Below are positions 11,488 through 29,048 of a DNA stretch of 30,396 bases, piece by piece; position 1 is the first letter of the stretch; every line of letters begins with the position of its first letter. The position numbers and the translations under genes were made by a program. The notes beneath the pieces were generated by a model, which worked only from the letters and a program-made list of their open reading frames with translations, was not told the DNA's origin and searched no databases. Source of the stretch: a virus (Duplodnaviria; Caudoviricetes); IMG/VR virus record IMGVR_UViG_3300048577_000466, positions 1 through 30,396 of that record. One strand, given 5' to 3'.

Positions 11488-12147
11488 TTATTTATGGGTT
11501 TGCCAGCGTTGCATCAGATCCAACGTTTCTGCGGTGTCAATGTCGCTGTAGCTGCTCGTGTAGATGCGTGGGCATGTGTTGCCCTGGTGGTCGAGAGCGA
11601 TGCATCTATCGAGGCCTTCTGTGGGTGTCAAGAGACTGCCCAGGTCGGCAAGCCAGATGCATTCGTCACCATGGGTAAGGTCGGGATATGGATGCTCTAT
11701 GAGGACTGAACGCTGATAGGTGATGCTGGTGCCCAGCACTAAGGCGTCATCGTGGTAGCGGTAAGCTCTGGCTTGACCGTCAATGACGTTGTAGAAGCGG
11801 ATGGACCTGTAGCCTGTGATCGGCTTGTCTGGCGTCAGGATGGCTTGCTGCTCTGCGAGTCGAGATGGGTGATACAGGTCGTCATCGTCCCAGTGCGCCA
11901 CGACATCGCCGGATGCCGCTTCTGCGCCTATGGTGCGTTTCCTACCCAACGTGAGCCCTGGAGGGCATCTGACGAGCCGTATGCGTGTATCTGATGGGAC
12001 AACGGCTGATACGTCGTCCTCTGAGACGATGACCAGTTCTCTGTGAGGATAGGTCTGATTGCTGAAGCAACGAATTGCTGTCGGCAGGTACTCAATTCGG
12101 CTTGCCCTGGTCGGACAGACGGCAGTGATTAGCGGACCAGACTGCAT
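11488..12147 (-). CDS. Glycosyltransferase family 2 (GT-A fold)
   Basis: ITAVCPT...AIRCFSNQTYPHRELVIV N-terminus, LGRKR...A.GD.VAHWDDDD (DxD motif), GDE late motif. Confidence 0.85.
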   Translation of the reverse strand: MQSGPLITAVCPTRASRIEYLPTAIRCFSNQTYPHRELVIVSEDDVSAVVPSDTRIRLVRCPPGLTLGRKRTIGAEAASGDVVAHWDDDDLYHPSRLAEQQAILTPDKPITGYRSIRFYNVIDGQARAYRYHDDALVLGTSITYQRSVLIEHPYPDLTHGDECIWLADLGSLLTPTEGLDRCIALDHQGNTCPRIYTSSYSDIDTAETLDLMQRWQTHK

Positions 12148-14102: not shown

Positions 14103-14732
14103 TTACACCTTGTAGATCTGCCGGATTTGCTCCAGCAGTGCCGCCGACTCATCAACGTCTCGTTGTGACTTCAGCGTTTTGTAGCCTGACGAAATGATCG
14201 TCTTGGCTTCTTTTTGAGAAAAGCCTGCATCCCGCAAGATCTTCTCTAAATCTCTTTCTGTTAGTTCATTCGCCTTTACGCTGGAGACCTGAGCCTCGAC
14301 ATTGCAAGGAAATGTGACTAAGCTGATTTCGTATAATTCGATTTGCTTCAATTGCCGTACGCCATCGCTCCACACAGCGCCGCCAACAGGAATGGCGTAA
14401 CCAATGGACAACCCAGTGATTGCTTTGAGCTTGAGCAATTCGTAGGCGTCATTACCTTTTTCGGTCTTGATCGCAAGCTGACCTTTGACGAGCAAACCAT
14501 TCTCGTCCTCTGCAAGTTCCAGGCAGACGCCAATCACATCATCTGTGTCGTGCTGGTAGCAAATCGGGACATACTGCTTGCGATTCTCCAGCGTGGCCGA
14601 AAATGCCCCCGGCAGAATTACATCATTCGCCTGATCGACGTTGCCAAACACAGCAGCGTACCCTTCAAAGATGCCCTCTTCGGTCGGTGCTGCTTTCAGA
14701 GCGAATTGATATGTGAGCTTTTTGGTTTCCAT
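14103..14732 (-). CDS. Prohead protease, HK97 family
   Basis: FEGYAAVF..VD...D...GAF, QH, GLSIGY, LYEISLVTFP motifs. Confidence 0.95.
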   Translation of the reverse strand: METKKLTYQFALKAAPTEEGIFEGYAAVFGNVDQANDVILPGAFSATLENRKQYVPICYQHDTDDVIGVCLELAEDENGLLVKGQLAIKTEKGNDAYELLKLKAITGLSIGYAIPVGGAVWSDGVRQLKQIELYEISLVTFPCNVEAQVSSVKANELTERDLEKILRDAGFSQKEAKTIISSGYKTLKSQRDVDESAALLEQIRQIYKV

Positions 14733-14744
14733 GTGCGTCTCTCT

Positions 14745-15938
14745 CTATTTATTCGACGGCAAATCCTGGATCGGACTCATGTTGAGTTGCACGGTGATGT
14801 CATCGCCGCCATCAATCGGTGTGAGACGCTCAAGACGACGTGCCTCATTACGAGTCATGATGCCGTTTTGGACCATTTGCGAGTAATATGCTGCTCTTGC
14901 TGCACTATCACCACGCATCAAACTGGAAACGTTGAATTCAGGAAAGATAATGCCTTTATCCTTCTGCTCGATCAGTGCTTTCACAATAGCGGCTTCGATC
15001 TTGGCGAGATACGGCATGAGCGTGAATTGCACAAATGACATTCCCTGACTTTCGATATTGCTGAACGTGGCGTGCGACAAATCACCAATTAAATGAGGCG
15101 GGACACGGAAGATTCTTGCTATCTCTTCAATGGAGAACTTGCGACTCTCAATGAATTGTGAGTCCTCTGGCGGAATCGTGATCTGTTGCCATTTGAAGCC
15201 AACAGGCAACACGTCAATCTTGTGCGCATTGTCAAGCCCTTGATTGTTGGAATTGAATCTTGCTTTGAAGGCCGTGATTTGATCGGCAGTCATCGCCTCA
15301 GTCGGACTGACAAATCCGGCTGGTGTGGCACCGTTGCTGTAAAAGCGTGCGCCGTACTCTTCAGAGGCAACGGCCATGCCGAGGGCTTGACGGCAGGTGC
15401 CGATTGGACTCAAACCAACCAGACCATCAAACGAGAACAATTTGACGTGGAAGATGTCCCGAGGCTGATACTCTTTGATTCCTGTGGCGGTCGAGACACG
15501 ATAGAGGATTTGCTGGTCCACAGCCTGAACTGTCATGTTGGCGGGATTGACCGGAATCAGTCCAATAACCTCCATGCCAGATCTGACAATCACCGAATAT
15601 GCATTACCCCATGTCGCAAGGCTGGCAATCATGGACTCCCAATATTCATTGGATGTCATCCACGCATTCGGCTCTTGAGAGACGATGTAATCGAGTTTGT
15701 GCTTGATGCGAGATGTGGAATCGTCCGAACCACGTTTATAGAAATGCAGAGGCAGATTGCCGCCAACCTCTGCCAACAGACGCACAGACGACCAAACCGC
15801 CGCAATGCCTAATGCAGATTCCTCTGTTACGACTCTGCCGACGTTTGTGCTGTAGATGTTGAGTCCGGTGAGTGTTCGATTGGTCGGCAAAAGACCAAAA
15901 TAGTCCAGAATCTTAATTGCGGCGGCTTTAATGTTCAT
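14745..15938 (-). CDS. Portal protein, HK97 family
   Basis: PNAWMT, GLVGLSPI, NGATP.G, QFIESRKFSIEEIARIFRVPPH, SNIESQ, MT.NEAR motifs. Confidence 0.95.
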   Translation of the reverse strand: MNIKAAAIKILDYFGLLPTNRTLTGLNIYSTNVGRVVTEESALGIAAVWSSVRLLAEVGGNLPLHFYKRGSDDSTSRIKHKLDYIVSQEPNAWMTSNEYWESMIASLATWGNAYSVIVRSGMEVIGLIPVNPANMTVQAVDQQILYRVSTATGIKEYQPRDIFHVKLFSFDGLVGLSPIGTCRQALGMAVASEEYGARFYSNGATPAGFVSPTEAMTADQITAFKARFNSNNQGLDNAHKIDVLPVGFKWQQITIPPEDSQFIESRKFSIEEIARIFRVPPHLIGDLSHATFSNIESQGMSFVQFTLMPYLAKIEAAIVKALIEQKDKGIIFPEFNVSSLMRGDSAARAAYYSQMVQNGIMTRNEARRLERLTPIDGGDDITVQLNMSPIQDLPSNK

Positions 15939-17533
15939 AATCTGATAGAGACTGGATCAGACAACCAGTCATCTATTAAGTTATTTATCGCCCTTGCTTT
16001 TTGGTCCGACGTATTACGCTGAGCCCGATCAAATGCCATAATTGACGCAATCACGCCGTCGATGCGTTGATTATTCTGCCGCTTGTTGGATTTGATGACA
16101 CGGATGTTATTGTTGGCGTCTTCTTTGACGGTCGAGCACCCAATATTCCACCGCAGTACAGGATTTGCGCCATGTATGATGTTGCCCAAGTAGGCGTGCT
16201 CTTTGAGGGCCTTGGTAGGATTGGTGAAAGCCATGATGGATTGGTTAAAATCCCATGTCTCTATGCCGCCTTCTTGTAGTTCCTCGATTACCTCTGCCGC
16301 CATCGCACGGTCAACGGCGATTTCGACAAGTTCGTACTTGGTCGCAACCTCCAAGATGTGTGAGATCACGTACTTATGCCGCACAACAGGACCAGGGCAA
16401 AGTGTCAGATACCCTTGTTTTGCCCATTCGGAATAAGGCACTCTATCCAAGCGCTCTTTTTCAGCCAAGTTTTCGGCTGGCATGAAAAAATGAGGCAAGA
16501 TGGCGTACTTCTCGTTATCGAGTGGGAAAACGAGTGAAAAGCAGGTCAAATCGTGTTTTTGGGACAGATCAAGACCGCCGAAACAGCGCTTACCTGTCAA
16601 ATCTGGCAATGGCTCATTGCAGGCATCCCATCGGTCGAGCGGGATATATGGCGTCTCAGAAGCGAGAACCCACTGATTCAAGCTCAGCAGGCGGAATCTG
16701 AGCATTGCGCCGGGGTCATTCAACGCTGTTTTGTACTCATCCTGGAATGTCGAGAGCCGTAAGAATCCTTTGCCCTGGTCACAATCCTCATCTGTAGCCA
16801 GGGCTGGATTTGCAGCAAACCAATATTGCTGGTCGGAGATGTCGCAATCGGCTGGTGCCTCACAGATATAGGCGTAATAGCGGTCGTCTGTGATCGTGCC
16901 GTCTACGATGCCTCTGGCGTACTCGTATTGCTGGCGTCCAATACCAGTGAGATTGTTGGATGCGGTCGTGATGGAGATGACGAGAGGCTGACGGCGATAC
17001 TTCATGCTGGACACCATGGCGTCGTAGAGATCCCTGGTATCCCAGAACGCAAGCTCGTCACAGATCACAGCAGACGCATTGAGTCCGTATGCAGACGAGG
17101 CGTCCGAAGACATCACCTTGAGTCTGCGTGTCCCGTAAATGATGCGCTTTTGTGAGTCGATCACCCGGCAGATCTTGTTGAGTTCCGGATTCGAGCGGAC
17201 CATACGAGCGGCATAGCGATACACCACAGATGCTTGCTCCCGATCACGGGCGCAGATGTAGACCTGTGCGCCCTCTTCGCCATCTCCCAGCAAGAGATAC
17301 AGCGCCAACATTGCAGTGAGGAATGATTTTGCGTTCTTTCGTGGGAGAAAAATTAACGCATGTCGATATTGCCTGAGTCCGTCATTGTCAACTGTGCCAA
17401 AAATAGGATTGATGATATTGTCAATCTGCCACGGTAGTAATTTGACATTTGTGCCTGCCGCTGGACCTTCAAAGTGTTGTCCGTACGTTTCGCAAAACTG
17501 AATTACTCTATCTGCTTTTACTTTGTCAAACAT
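15935..17533 (-). CDS. terL: Terminase large subunit
   Basis: LLPWQ, Walker A-like PRKNAKS, Walker B ICDE, ITTA, nuclease GGLDLS..DL and RIDG motifs. Confidence 0.95.
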   Translation of the reverse strand: MFDKVKADRVIQFCETYGQHFEGPAAGTNVKLLPWQIDNIINPIFGTVDNDGLRQYRHALIFLPRKNAKSFLTAMLALYLLLGDGEEGAQVYICARDREQASVVYRYAARMVRSNPELNKICRVIDSQKRIIYGTRRLKVMSSDASSAYGLNASAVICDELAFWDTRDLYDAMVSSMKYRRQPLVISITTASNNLTGIGRQQYEYARGIVDGTITDDRYYAYICEAPADCDISDQQYWFAANPALATDEDCDQGKGFLRLSTFQDEYKTALNDPGAMLRFRLLSLNQWVLASETPYIPLDRWDACNEPLPDLTGKRCFGGLDLSQKHDLTCFSLVFPLDNEKYAILPHFFMPAENLAEKERLDRVPYSEWAKQGYLTLCPGPVVRHKYVISHILEVATKYELVEIAVDRAMAAEVIEELQEGGIETWDFNQSIMAFTNPTKALKEHAYLGNIIHGANPVLRWNIGCSTVKEDANNNIRVIKSNKRQNNQRIDGVIASIMAFDRAQRNTSDQKARAINNLIDDWLSDPVSIRL

Positions 17534-17904
17534 TATCGGATGAGATCATTACGCTTAATTGCGTTAGCCTGATCGTCGGCGTGTTTCATTCTTTTGCGTG
17601 AGGCTGGAGTCAGTCCGTATTCTTTGGAAAGCTGGCGGACAGTTTCCGAGGCTGAATTGACAATGCTGATTAAGGGATTCGGTGCAGGCCAGCCAGTCTT
17701 TGCGGAGATCACAGTCAGTCCCTGTGTTTGCAATTGCTGCTGTGCTGTGACCATTCGAGAAAAGGCACAACATAGCGACGTGAGCCCTTGTAGATCGGCA
17801 TCGGTCAGCTTATCGCCCAATAAGAGGACAATACGGTTCCATTCTGTTGTCGCTAATTCGTCGAGATAAGATGGGGCGGGGAATTGTGGTTTGCGCTTTG
17901 CCAT
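17533..17904 (-). CDS. terS: Terminase small subunit, P27 family
   Basis: P.YL...A..EW.R, NPLI, EYGLTPASR motifs; overlaps the terL start. Confidence 0.92.
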   Translation of the reverse strand: MAKRKPQFPAPSYLDELATTEWNRIVLLLGDKLTDADLQGLTSLCCAFSRMVTAQQQLQTQGLTVISAKTGWPAPNPLISIVNSASETVRQLSKEYGLTPASRKRMKHADDQANAIKRNDLIR

Positions 17905-22985: not shown

Positions 22986-23005
22986 AGTGCGTGATGCCTA
23001 TGAGT

Positions 23006-23012
23006 TATTTAT
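23006..23012 (-). promoter_or_regulatory. ATAAATA late-promoter-like box, first of a family (others at 19094, 18479, 17948, 15982, 14746, 11489, 10601, 9481, 6817, 956)
   Basis: Recurrent coding-strand motif near late gene starts; matches the core of the T4 late promoter TATAAATA. Confidence 0.75.
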
Positions 23013-23020
23013 GTGTGAGC

Positions 23021-23044
23021 AGAAGGCGGCAATGTTGTGCCGCC
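23021..23044 (-). terminator. Hairpin upstream of the first late box
   Basis: GGCGGCA/TGCCGCC stem followed by TTCT; weak U tract. Confidence 0.5.
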
Positions 23045-23084
23045 ATCAACATTACATTATGGTGACATCAGAATAATAATGGTG

Positions 23085-23166
23085 TAGCAATACCCGAAGG
23101 GCCGAAGGCTCAAATGTTAGAAGTTATAGAGATCTTATGCAGTGCTTCGCACCCTTCGGATTACTA
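23085..23166. repeat. Two-fold symmetric element with four GAA mini-hairpins; candidate origin
   Basis: CCCGAAGGG and GCCGAAGGC on +; GTGCGAAGCAC and TCCGAAGGG on -; AT-rich spacer and flanks. Confidence 0.55.
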
Positions 23167-23224
23167 TAATATAATACCTGACAGGGTTTTTGAATGGTAG
23201 CGAGTACTGCTACCACTCGATCAC

Positions 23225-23593
23225 ATGGTCTGACATGGGAATCGCCGGGACTTGATCTTAGCGCCCGAAGCATAGACTTGTTACTGGTAACCCACCCGAA
23301 GGCCAATCCCGCTCTTCAGCGCCCGTTCTTCGTCTCCACGTTACTTGGGTTGGTCTTAGTCTGACTAAGACCTTTTAGGACCGTGGCAGAATTGCTCTGC
23401 TATCCACGGTGGCTGTAGGTACTGCTATTCGCAGCTATCGGCATCGTTACCCACCTTTCGTCTGGGAGGAGTACATGCCGGGCGGATTTCTCCGCCAATC
23501 TGCCAAGCGGCTTAATATGCGCCCTCTTGGACTTTGTGCCCGACTCACTATCCATGGCTCAGTGATACCTTCACCGAACCGGAATCAGATCAC
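23225..23593 (-). ncRNA. Putative ~370-nt structured non-coding RNA of unknown family
   Basis: Many nested stems, GAAA tetraloops, G-U pairs that work only on the minus strand, pairing between 5' and 3' ends, no credible ORF. Confidence 0.65.
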
Positions 23594-24164
23594 AACAATA
23601 TATAGACACGGACATTTGGACGGCGACGACCAAAATGGCTTCCGACCACAAGGGGTTGTGTATATCAGTGATAGACCCTATATTTTGTGTTCAGAAAAGT
23701 GAAAGAATTCTCTCGTGCATTTGTGCGAGGGTTGGTTTGTGTTGCATATGGGACTCATTGTTGCACGGATTCTTGGTTTGTCAAATGCCCTGTGCGTGTG
23801 CGAATGATGTATCTAAATTCCGGTGACGCAAGTATGCACGTCGTGCGGTTCGGCGGGCAAAGAAGGCCCAAGACGCTGGCGAAGCGTTGCAGTTGCGCCG
23901 AAAGAGAATGACGAATGCCACAGGACATGCGATTGATGTGCCCACGACGGCGCAAGGCCAATCGGACTGTGCAGCGTAGCAGTGAGATTGTTTATACGGC
24001 CCTCCCAGATCGGCGGCGTAGTGCTGGTATAAGGCGAATTGATGGAGTCCGTATCGCTATAAGCTGGATTTATGCTGATAGCTTCTCCGGACACTCCCGG
24101 AAGTCATGATCAGCTTGGTTACTCCGCTGCGCCACGTACTACGTTATACTCCATCGGAGATGCC

Positions 24165-27846: not shown

Positions 27847-28215
27847 CTACTTCTTGTATGCCTCCGCTACCGCCTGCTCTGCCTGTGCCAGCACATCATC
27901 AGGCACAGAGACGCCCTTCTTGGCCGCCAACCTGTCAAGTGCTAAGCGCACAGAATCGAGTGCCTGCGCCTTGGTGAGCTTGTTGGCTTTGGCGTAGTTG
28001 CTGATGCGGGTGATACTTGTGCTCCACCTGATGTCCGCTGATGCGGCCTTGGACCGTTTGGTGCGGCGTGGCGTGGCATCTGATCGCACGAGCACATAGG
28101 AGTAGCCCAGGTCGTTCAGGGCCTGCACTTCGGACTGTAGCTGTTCAACTGCCTTTTCTAATAGTTGCTGGCGTTTGGCGTCGAGATCCCGTAGCTGATC
28201 AAGTATGGATGGCAT
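27847..28215 (-). CDS. Small basic protein with an H-NS-like N-terminal coiled coil
   Basis: MPSILDQLRDLDAKRQQLLE...LNDLGY followed by a basic linker PRRTKRSK. Confidence 0.55.
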   Translation of the reverse strand: MPSILDQLRDLDAKRQQLLEKAVEQLQSEVQALNDLGYSYVLVRSDATPRRTKRSKAASADIRWSTSITRISNYAKANKLTKAQALDSVRLALDRLAAKKGVSVPDDVLAQAEQAVAEAYKK

Positions 28216-28347
28216 AAGGAGAGGATACCACCAGCAGAAGGTGCATCTCGCAGAGGTCAAAGCAAGTTACGCATCCGATTTCATCACCAAGAATAAAGAT
28301 AAGCTTCTCAAGATGGATCTGAATGTGTATGTGTGATCAAACAAACA

Positions 28348-28601: not shown

Positions 28602-29048
28602 ATGCGTGAAATATTGAGTAAAGGGTATGGCGTCAGGAAACGGTTTTCTGCGACATTCGTGCGCCTCGGCAAGAAACGTGCATATCGAGGCTTCGGAACA
28701 AACGGAGACGGGACAGATGCAACACTCCTGTTGATGGATGTACGTGAGTTCGATTCAGGACGCATTGTTGCGGACCACTTGTGGTTCAACATGACAGTTG
28801 GATTCGAGGAAGTTAACGATGGAATGGGGTTGTTTGACGGCGAAATCGTCAGCTTCGATGCCAGAGTAGATTCCTACGTGAAGGGTTATCGACGAGATGA
28901 TTATGACTACAAACTGTCACGCCCCACCAAAGTGATTGCTCATAGCTGCCCTGACTGGGACGACTATGATGGTCCCGAACATTCGAGAGCGATTTCAGAG
29001 GCAATGCAAGCGAACAAGGCGAACTGCGACAAGCAATCCAACACTTGA
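28602..29048 (+). CDS. Hypothetical phage-type protein, possibly OB-fold
   Basis: AAGGA RBS; beta-rich with DHLWF, FDARV..Y.KGY and YKLSRPT motifs. Confidence 0.75.
   Translation: MREILSKGYGVRKRFSATFVRLGKKRAYRGFGTNGDGTDATLLLMDVREFDSGRIVADHLWFNMTVGFEEVNDGMGLFDGEIVSFDARVDSYVKGYRRDDYDYKLSRPTKVIAHSCPDWDDYDGPEHSRAISEAMQANKANCDKQSNT

Follow-up and report, generated by a model that had tools for sequence, protein, structure and literature searches.

The DNA analysed here (the window, 30,396 nucleotides) is recorded in IMG/VR as a provirus with an estimated completeness of 42%. Genes for a siphovirus-type virion lie on its minus strand (terminase, portal, protease, capsid, connectors, tail tube, tape measure, and fibres), and the window also has accessory genes, a tyrosine integrase gene, and two HNH genes. 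tRNA and tmRNA genes were looked for in the window, and none were found. No window gene matched a replication family (Rep, primase, or helicase) in a search by family, which novel initiators would escape, and no match to the gp55, gp33, or sliding clamp families was obtained. The window element has no recognisable sigma, Rep, primase, or helicase gene. Because these sigma and replication genes are missing, it may be a satellite-like prophage that is triggered by a helper and supplies a virion of its own. A gap of 1086 bases without genes (22986-24071) is the sole intergenic stretch longer than 341 bases among the genes called in the window. It holds, on the minus strand from about 23594 to 23179, a structured RNA of about 420 bases.

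A large structured non-coding RNA of no known family had been proposed here from the sequence-only reading, at 23225..23605. Covariation in seven copies and the lack of an Rfam match bear out that proposal, and the RNA proved to be longer than first drawn; conservation continues to 23179, so that 23225 is not its 3′ boundary. Through the neighbouring fibre gene (gp80), a sister element was located in Paludibaculum fermentans T20B24; its copy (L209) is 88% identical to the window over 23618-23078. In 401 genomes of the family of Paludibaculum, which we take to be the Bryobacteraceae (Acidobacteriota), 11 matches at E ≤ 0.01 resolved into four full copies, one fragment, and six short chance hits that were dropped; the full copies beyond that of Paludibaculum were in G128, G330, and G205, and the fragment, a 5′ one, was in G363. 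Refined patterns matched 4, 43, and 39 viral loci, among which only two contigs, G744 and G745, were real. The seven full copies, 59-94% identical, lie in phage-like elements and islands and form subtype A (the window, L209, and L356) and subtype B (L298, L299, L300, and L310). Those in G128 and G205 adjoin insertion sequences. In G363 (L301:1500-1560, minus strand), the RNA breaks off after approximately 60 core bases in an island otherwise near-identical to that of G330.

No new full copy was found in 401 class-level genomes or in two sets of 121 relatives. The gp80-based searches returned two genome loci, of which only L209 had the RNA, together with 80 viral loci and 79 metagenome loci that all lacked it, and viral pattern scans built from the window alone gave 1 and 121 loci, all by chance. 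Phage and plasmid collections searched by blastn yielded no real match; the three hits among 72,556 plasmids were chance ones of 32-33 bases, outside the RNA. The Rfam check proposed with the sequence-only reading gave no family match for the window: Rfam 15 at the gathering score (including ROOL, GOLLD, OLE, and known ribozymes) returned 0 matches, and ranking by E-value returned only weak chance matches in the 2-kb region (two) and in eight other loci. The RNA contains no conserved ORF, as the longest stop-free runs (57-87 codons) differ in frame and strand among the members, and when the surroundings of the members were compared, no neighbouring gene was common to them. A literature search found no account of the RNA, which may stand unnamed in the supplements of large candidate-RNA screens. 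The RNA represents a new, uncatalogued family of large RNAs.

The extensive structure of this RNA is backed by covariation. For ten hand-named helices in the seven copies, 96.3% of 294 cells were paired and 7 of the 42 pairs changed on both sides, with the reservations that the tested structure was derived by hand from the same seven sequences, that these form only two clades, and that many of the changes amount to one event. Slid controls of the helix test gave 31-47% of cells paired and 0-2 two-sided pairs; among 500 shuffles, none reached the observed paired fraction and nine reached the number of two-sided pairs. Folding of single sequences, which had been suggested as a check, was only modestly above chance (z = -2.67 for the minus strand and -2.01 for the plus strand), and for the 362-nt core of the window the plus strand folded better than the minus strand (z = -3.30 versus -2.73). 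The best local folding was at 23350-23499 (z = -6.2). Since lone-sequence folding is weak evidence, it is the homologues that decide whether the fold is real, and because the single-sequence z of the core ranges from -0.6 to -4.0 among the members, the fold is more than a set of strong hairpins. The interchange of G-U, A-U, and G-C pairs and the conserved GNRA loops favour the minus strand, as the sequence-only reading had it. The long-range helices that RNAalifold drew on the raw alignment were not adopted.

From 5′ to 3′ on the minus strand, the RNA begins in subtype A with a 5′ domain (23539..23594), composed of a hairpin (23580-23556) with strands on either side that can form local pairs or reach the 3′ region. 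This domain is kept in the window, L209, and L356 and is replaced or absent in subtype B. The first conserved domain (23502..23532) has a CA(A)G/C(U)UG stem, a GGC/GCC stem, and a loop (23520-23512) predicted to pair with 23255-23251; in the CA(A)G/C(U)UG stem, a one-base indel is matched on both sides, and 21/21 cells are paired in this domain. It is followed by a GAAA-capped hairpin of 6 bp (23481..23496), in which all 42 cells are paired and four of the six pairs change on both sides, and by a long hairpin with a conserved AGACGNANG loop (23439..23480; outer stem 36/42 and inner stem 33/42 cells paired). The variable region (23352..23438), which differs between the subtypes, comprises an optional hairpin (23435-23421), an invariant UACAGC, and hairpins at 23410-23380 and 23372-23352. 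At 23310..23349, a CCY/GGG stem encloses a 3-bp GRAG hairpin (23340-23331) and is followed by a 4-bp GAAG hairpin (23321-23310). The former occurs with four different stem versions and 21/21 cells paired, the latter with 28/28 cells paired and two two-sided changes; this region was missing from the earlier list of helices. The most conserved core (23244..23309) consists of three stacked stems (21/21, 28/28, and 35/35 cells paired, with one-sided changes only) and a near-invariant AGAUCAAG strand. The 3′ domain (23179..23243), with a CAUG hairpin, a long hairpin (23218-23192), and an invariant AACCCUGUCA end, is conserved in all seven copies and lies partly beyond the coordinates first assigned.

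Three long-range pairings are predicted by complementarity, with little covariation. One is a putative pseudoknot between the loop 23516-23512 and 23255-23251 (31/35 cells, no covariation). GANAG of the variable region can pair with the terminal CUGUC (34/35 cells), and UACAG is predicted, by eye, to pair with a GUA-containing strand of the 3′ domain.

All the complementary segments read from the single sequence were present at their positions, and the homologues treated them differently. The GAAA hairpin at 23496-23481 was confirmed by the two-sided changes noted above, and CGGCAU/AUGCCG was paired in 36 of 42 cells. The GGUUCGGUGA/UCACUGAGCC helix held by eye in the three subtype-A copies and not elsewhere, and only three pairs of GGGAUUGG/UCAAGUCCC were kept in all seven copies. 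The hairpins at 23410-23380 and 23372-23352 stood in the window; elsewhere their sequence varies, and by eye other hairpins take their place. Of the closing stem, eight of nine pairs form; subtype B lacks its 5′ strand, and the stem does not mark the end of the RNA. A long-range pairing had been proposed between GAGUCG and CGAUUC; pairing of the 5′ and 3′ regions does recur by eye, with different complementary sequences in subtype B. The proposed GCUUGG/CCAAGU helix fell, as its 3′ strand is kept in only 2/7 copies and its 5′ strand pairs locally in the CA(A)G/C(U)UG stem with the matched indel.

The predicted promoter of the RNA is a late-type box, CTATATA (23599..23605, minus strand). It had been read as a box variant, and the comparison backs it as a strand-specific late-promoter variant, CTA(T/A/C)ATA in 6/7 members and ATACATA in the seventh. 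In the window, CTA(T/A/C)ATA has four copies, all on the minus strand and none on the plus strand; the HNH and small terminase genes are preceded by copies too. ATAAATA has nine copies on the minus strand (962, 6823, 9487, 10607, 11495, 14752, 15988, 18485, and 23012) and none on the plus strand, and every one precedes a late-module gene, in an element without a sigma gene. In some cases, only approximately 12 bases separate the box from the start codon, which suggests that the mRNAs are leaderless. The one at 23006..23012 (minus strand) precedes the gp80-like fibre gene (22985-22626) and is also present in G001, a relative that lacks the RNA. A strong hairpin (23050-23020, minus strand; local z = -6.7) stands just ahead of this box in the window and is not kept in L209. 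The box of the RNA has C where most virion-gene boxes have A, and an a/gC variant of the late promoter box is reported for phage Aeh1 (PMC2988020). As described there, T4 late promoters consist of a solitary box that precedes the start by about one turn (PMC2988020); in L300, the conserved fold begins approximately 11 bases after the start of the box, a spacing that would fit transcription starting just downstream. The likeness to T4 gp55 promoters thus lies in a single AT-rich box near the predicted start with no conserved -35 element (as outlined in PMC2988020), whereas the window element lacks gp55 and any gp33 or sliding clamp family match.

A gp55-like sigma gene was found in the relative G745 (L410:7619-8284; E = 5e-36), where it lies in a small integrase-bearing siphovirus-like element, which is unusual outside T4-type phages. 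Such a gene was absent from the four other elements (the window, G001, the Paludibaculum element, and G744) and was not found in five host genomes searched with the G745-type query. Because of this distribution, we infer that the gp55-like sigma factor is supplied by another phage, and it likely directs transcription of the RNA from a T4-type late promoter. A TTGAC(A/G) hexamer is also present upstream of the RNA in all seven members, and the window has a sigma-70-like promoter candidate there (23757..23784, minus strand; 10/12 in a consensus scan). Given this hexamer, host-driven transcription of the RNA is possible.

After the RNA comes an AT-rich tract (23160..23176; 94% A+T over 17 bases), followed by a cassette (23094..23159) in which each strand has two GAA-triloop DNA mini-hairpins, four in all, set about an AT-rich spacer; it is a predicted priming or origin signal. 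This is the only mini-hairpin cluster in the window, and none of 200 shuffles gave such a cluster. Since GTGC-GAA-GCAC can close only with a triloop, it speaks for a hairpin in DNA and not for an RNA UUCG loop. By eye, both halves of the cassette are present in three members, part of it in three, and none in one. GAA-type mini-hairpins are known from N4 promoters, from the priming site of G4, and from ssiA of RSF1010, where CCGAAGG occurs (PMC13037366). The window cassette shares the hairpin type, including CCGAAGG and here on both strands, with RSF1010 ssiA/ssiB and the G4 priming hairpins as presented there (PMC13037366), and differs in the lack of a cognate primase gene in the element. Elsewhere the cassette patterns were uninformative, as seven of eight viral hits lay in coding regions, and in the 401 genomes six matched compared with 13 hits of the reversed control.

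The Paludibaculum sister element is complete between 22-bp direct repeats, spans 29.1 kb with host genes on both sides, and has virion-side genes with homologues in the window. The completeness of 42% estimated for the window is therefore probably too low. In the sister element, none of the genes could be recognised as encoding a Rep, primase, helicase, repressor, or sigma factor, and none matched a replication family. Other copies of the RNA lie in recombinase-bearing islands with no virion operon following. A Pfam search found no replication family among 150 + 135 ORFs (285) of the related elements and islands, the unannotated ones of which could hide a novel initiator.

What fills the place of the RNA differs between relatives. 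In G001 (L207:7892-9320), it holds six 35-nt repeats, an inverted copy, and a gene for a 334-aa helix-turn-helix protein, only two other homologues of which were found. Family, homologue, and fold searches identified this protein as a generic winged helix with no tie to a Rep or initiator family (model pLDDT 58; no fold match at E ≤ 0.001). The gene and repeats are a candidate for a novel initiator and origin. The RNA had been placed where a replication module would normally lie; this is upheld circumstantially by the repeat array and helix-turn-helix gene of G001 and by the sister element without a recognisable replication gene, although the G001 protein is not shown to be an initiator. Three other islands, bounded by direct repeats at a tRNA gene, have a similar box and similar hairpins, with unrelated folded non-coding sequences filling the space between the two: L293:1600-1895 (minus strand; ~300 bases, z = -2.67), L423:1515-2075 (~560 bases, z = -4.40), and L426:1570-2185 (minus strand; ~620 bases, z = -3.61). 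Each of these islands has a resolvase and none has a Pfam replication protein (150 ORFs). The three sequences had no match to an Rfam family, no mutual similarity was detected among them and the window RNA, and L293 had no relative in the 401 genomes; L423 shares the box and 5′ domain of L310. From these single sequences and their predicted folds, each may represent a new RNA family. The RNA apparently occupies an unusual, modular slot.

We propose, with a probability of roughly 40%, that the RNA is the initiator of a helper-triggered, RNA-driven replication origin that acts in cis and needs no protein encoded by the element. A gp55-like sigma of another, infecting phage would switch on the late box of the RNA, transcription would proceed through the folded body into the AT-rich tract, and the transcript or its read-through tail would open the duplex as an R-loop or primer. 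Host or helper enzymes would then use the GAA mini-hairpins on both strands as signals for priming or loading. We counted in favour of this proposal the sister element without a replication family match, the lone large gap, the repeat array and helix-turn-helix gene in the G001 slot, the non-random cassette, and the similar arrangement of box, fold, and hairpins in the three tRNA-site islands. Several results count against it. The RNA 3′ end is predicted to fold back (34/35 cells), unlike a primer tail; the cassette is incomplete in 4/7 members, and its pattern yielded no informative loci elsewhere; GC skew shows no turn at the slot in 4/4 elements; the RNA is broken after approximately 60 bases in the G363 island; and the searches on the G001 slot protein identified nothing beyond a generic winged helix. 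Absence of Rep genes is in any case common among islands. The broader proposal, that integrative satellites and islands replicate without a protein of their own because a phage late sigma drives interchangeable, unrelated ornate RNAs that fire a mini-hairpin origin, with the RNA being both the output of an infection sensor and the initiator, would in our judgment be unlikely on the whole.

An RNA of this kind would work like ColE1 RNA II or the origins of marine RNA-based (MRB) replicons, yet by our comparison it fails the ColE1 features tested except the absence of a Rep gene. With ColE1 RNA II/RNA I, as far as the system is set out in PMC8683028, it shares the lack of a Rep gene and a promoter driving a structured RNA of several hundred bases towards a candidate origin. 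It differs in having no sequence match among the 72,556 plasmids, in residing in integrated elements instead of plasmids, and in its late-type promoter and predicted multi-pseudoknot fold. In ColE1, a G-rich tract anchors the RNA-DNA hybrid; such a tract is missing here, with no run of at least five G in 6/7 members, which counts against the origin. The ~100-nt antisense RNA I that overlaps the 5′ end of the ColE1 primer is not matched either: no conserved 5′ antisense promoter was found, and a consensus scan gave antisense sigma-70-like candidates in only 2/7 members (the window, 23146..23175, plus strand, and L209), at the 3′ end. In the MRB replicons of Vibrionaceae, such as pB1067, an ORF-free, iteron-free region of ~500 bp is, in the published description, the sole conserved feature amid diverse cargo (PMC3035462). 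Those origins are reported to have been shown to replicate (PMC3035462), whereas an origin role of the window RNA is a proposal. The window RNA occurs in different hosts and has no plasmid match, and a cassette and late box are not among the MRB features in that description (PMC3035462).

Other roles would suit part of this evidence. The RNA could be a trans-acting ornate RNA of the ROOL or GOLLD kind, a late multi-pseudoknot scaffold or decoy that binds a host or helper protein or assembles with itself, with the cassette being a separate origin or an insulator; we consider this the main rival of the origin proposal, doubtful but not far behind it in probability. Its dense invariant single-stranded motifs and three predicted long-range pairings suit a three-dimensional fold, the 3′ end folds back, the members have no neighbour gene in common, unrelated folded sequences fill the equivalent slot, and the islands carry defence genes. 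ROOL and GOLLD offer a precedent: in the account given in PMC12286853, they are large pseudoknotted RNAs of prophages, of unknown function and not linked to a protein gene, and the level of GOLLD increases during lysis. The window RNA differs from them in having no Rfam match (the window and eight loci), in its length (~350-470 bases versus 659 and >800 bases, as given in PMC12286853), and in its linkage to a DNA hairpin cassette in a window without a tRNA gene. However, a trans-acting role leaves unexplained both the replacement by a repeat array and helix-turn-helix gene in G001 and the tight linkage to DNA mini-hairpins in several elements, and no partner protein was identified. An antisense regulator of helper-phage or element mRNAs would also act in trans and appears very unlikely. 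The PLE satellite with its RNA SviR provides a precedent for a satellite-encoded trans-acting RNA (10.1101/2022.04.08.487710), and the promoter of the window RNA would tie expression to infection. Like PLE, the window element is integrated, and it is predicted to respond to another phage and to express a non-coding RNA. The window element, however, has a full capsid, terminase, and tail set, and its RNA is larger, its conserved single strands have internal partners, and complementarity to the rest of its own element is limited to 12 bases, at chance level, in 4/4 elements.

A catalytic RNA (a self-cleaving, processing, or intron-derived core) that matures itself or a longer transcript would agree with the compact core, GNRA loops, and invariant junctions, and presumably with short likenesses to group I and RNase P motifs seen by eye. 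We judge it distinctly unlikely, as there was no match to an Rfam ribozyme, the helix order by our own reading departs from group I, no intron-less allele was found among the loci, and no maturase, reverse transcriptase, or nuclease partner lies beside any member. Searches for a group I intron (RF00028; controls found in 8/14 genomes, with filters that may miss very divergent cores) and for bacterial RNase P RNA (RF00010, type A model; controls found in 11/14) gave no candidate. Least probable, and very unlikely, is a role in cis on the late operon, with the RNA being its leader, attenuator, or antiterminator. The virion operon does begin right after the RNA, in the same orientation, in the window and in L209, but in G745 the RNA is ~5 kb from the virion genes, and no virion operon follows it in G744, G330, G128, or G205. 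Moreover, G001 runs the equivalent operon without the RNA, and the first late gene has its own box.

One copy of this uncatalogued family of large RNAs resides in a named strain, Paludibaculum fermentans T20B24, which makes direct tests possible. If the origin proposal holds, Rep-less replication driven by RNA would extend from plasmids to integrated phage-like elements and would be coupled to the late programme of another phage. If instead the RNA acts in trans, a slot shared by at least four unrelated folded sequences would offer a handle on the function of large ornate phage RNAs, because the predicted trigger, a gp55-type sigma, can be supplied.

Further features of the elements were also observed. 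The element type of approximately 29-30 kb seen in the window and in G006:C2 (about 5010431-5039519) has full capsid and tail genes and no recognisable replication, repressor, sigma, or lysis gene, and is possibly a helper-triggered satellite carrying its own virion. Judged by gene identities, the head module is swapped between the window and G001: over 14103-17904 of the window, the head and packaging genes are 27-38% identical, whereas the tail genes are 65-89% identical, and the integrases differ too. Two small genes of no known family, at 27847-28260 (common to G001 and L209) and 28602-29048 (common to L209 and G745), are candidates for a regulator or a hidden replication factor. A family 2 glycosyltransferase gene (11488-12147), conserved in both G001 and the element of L209, lies amid the head-tail connector genes.
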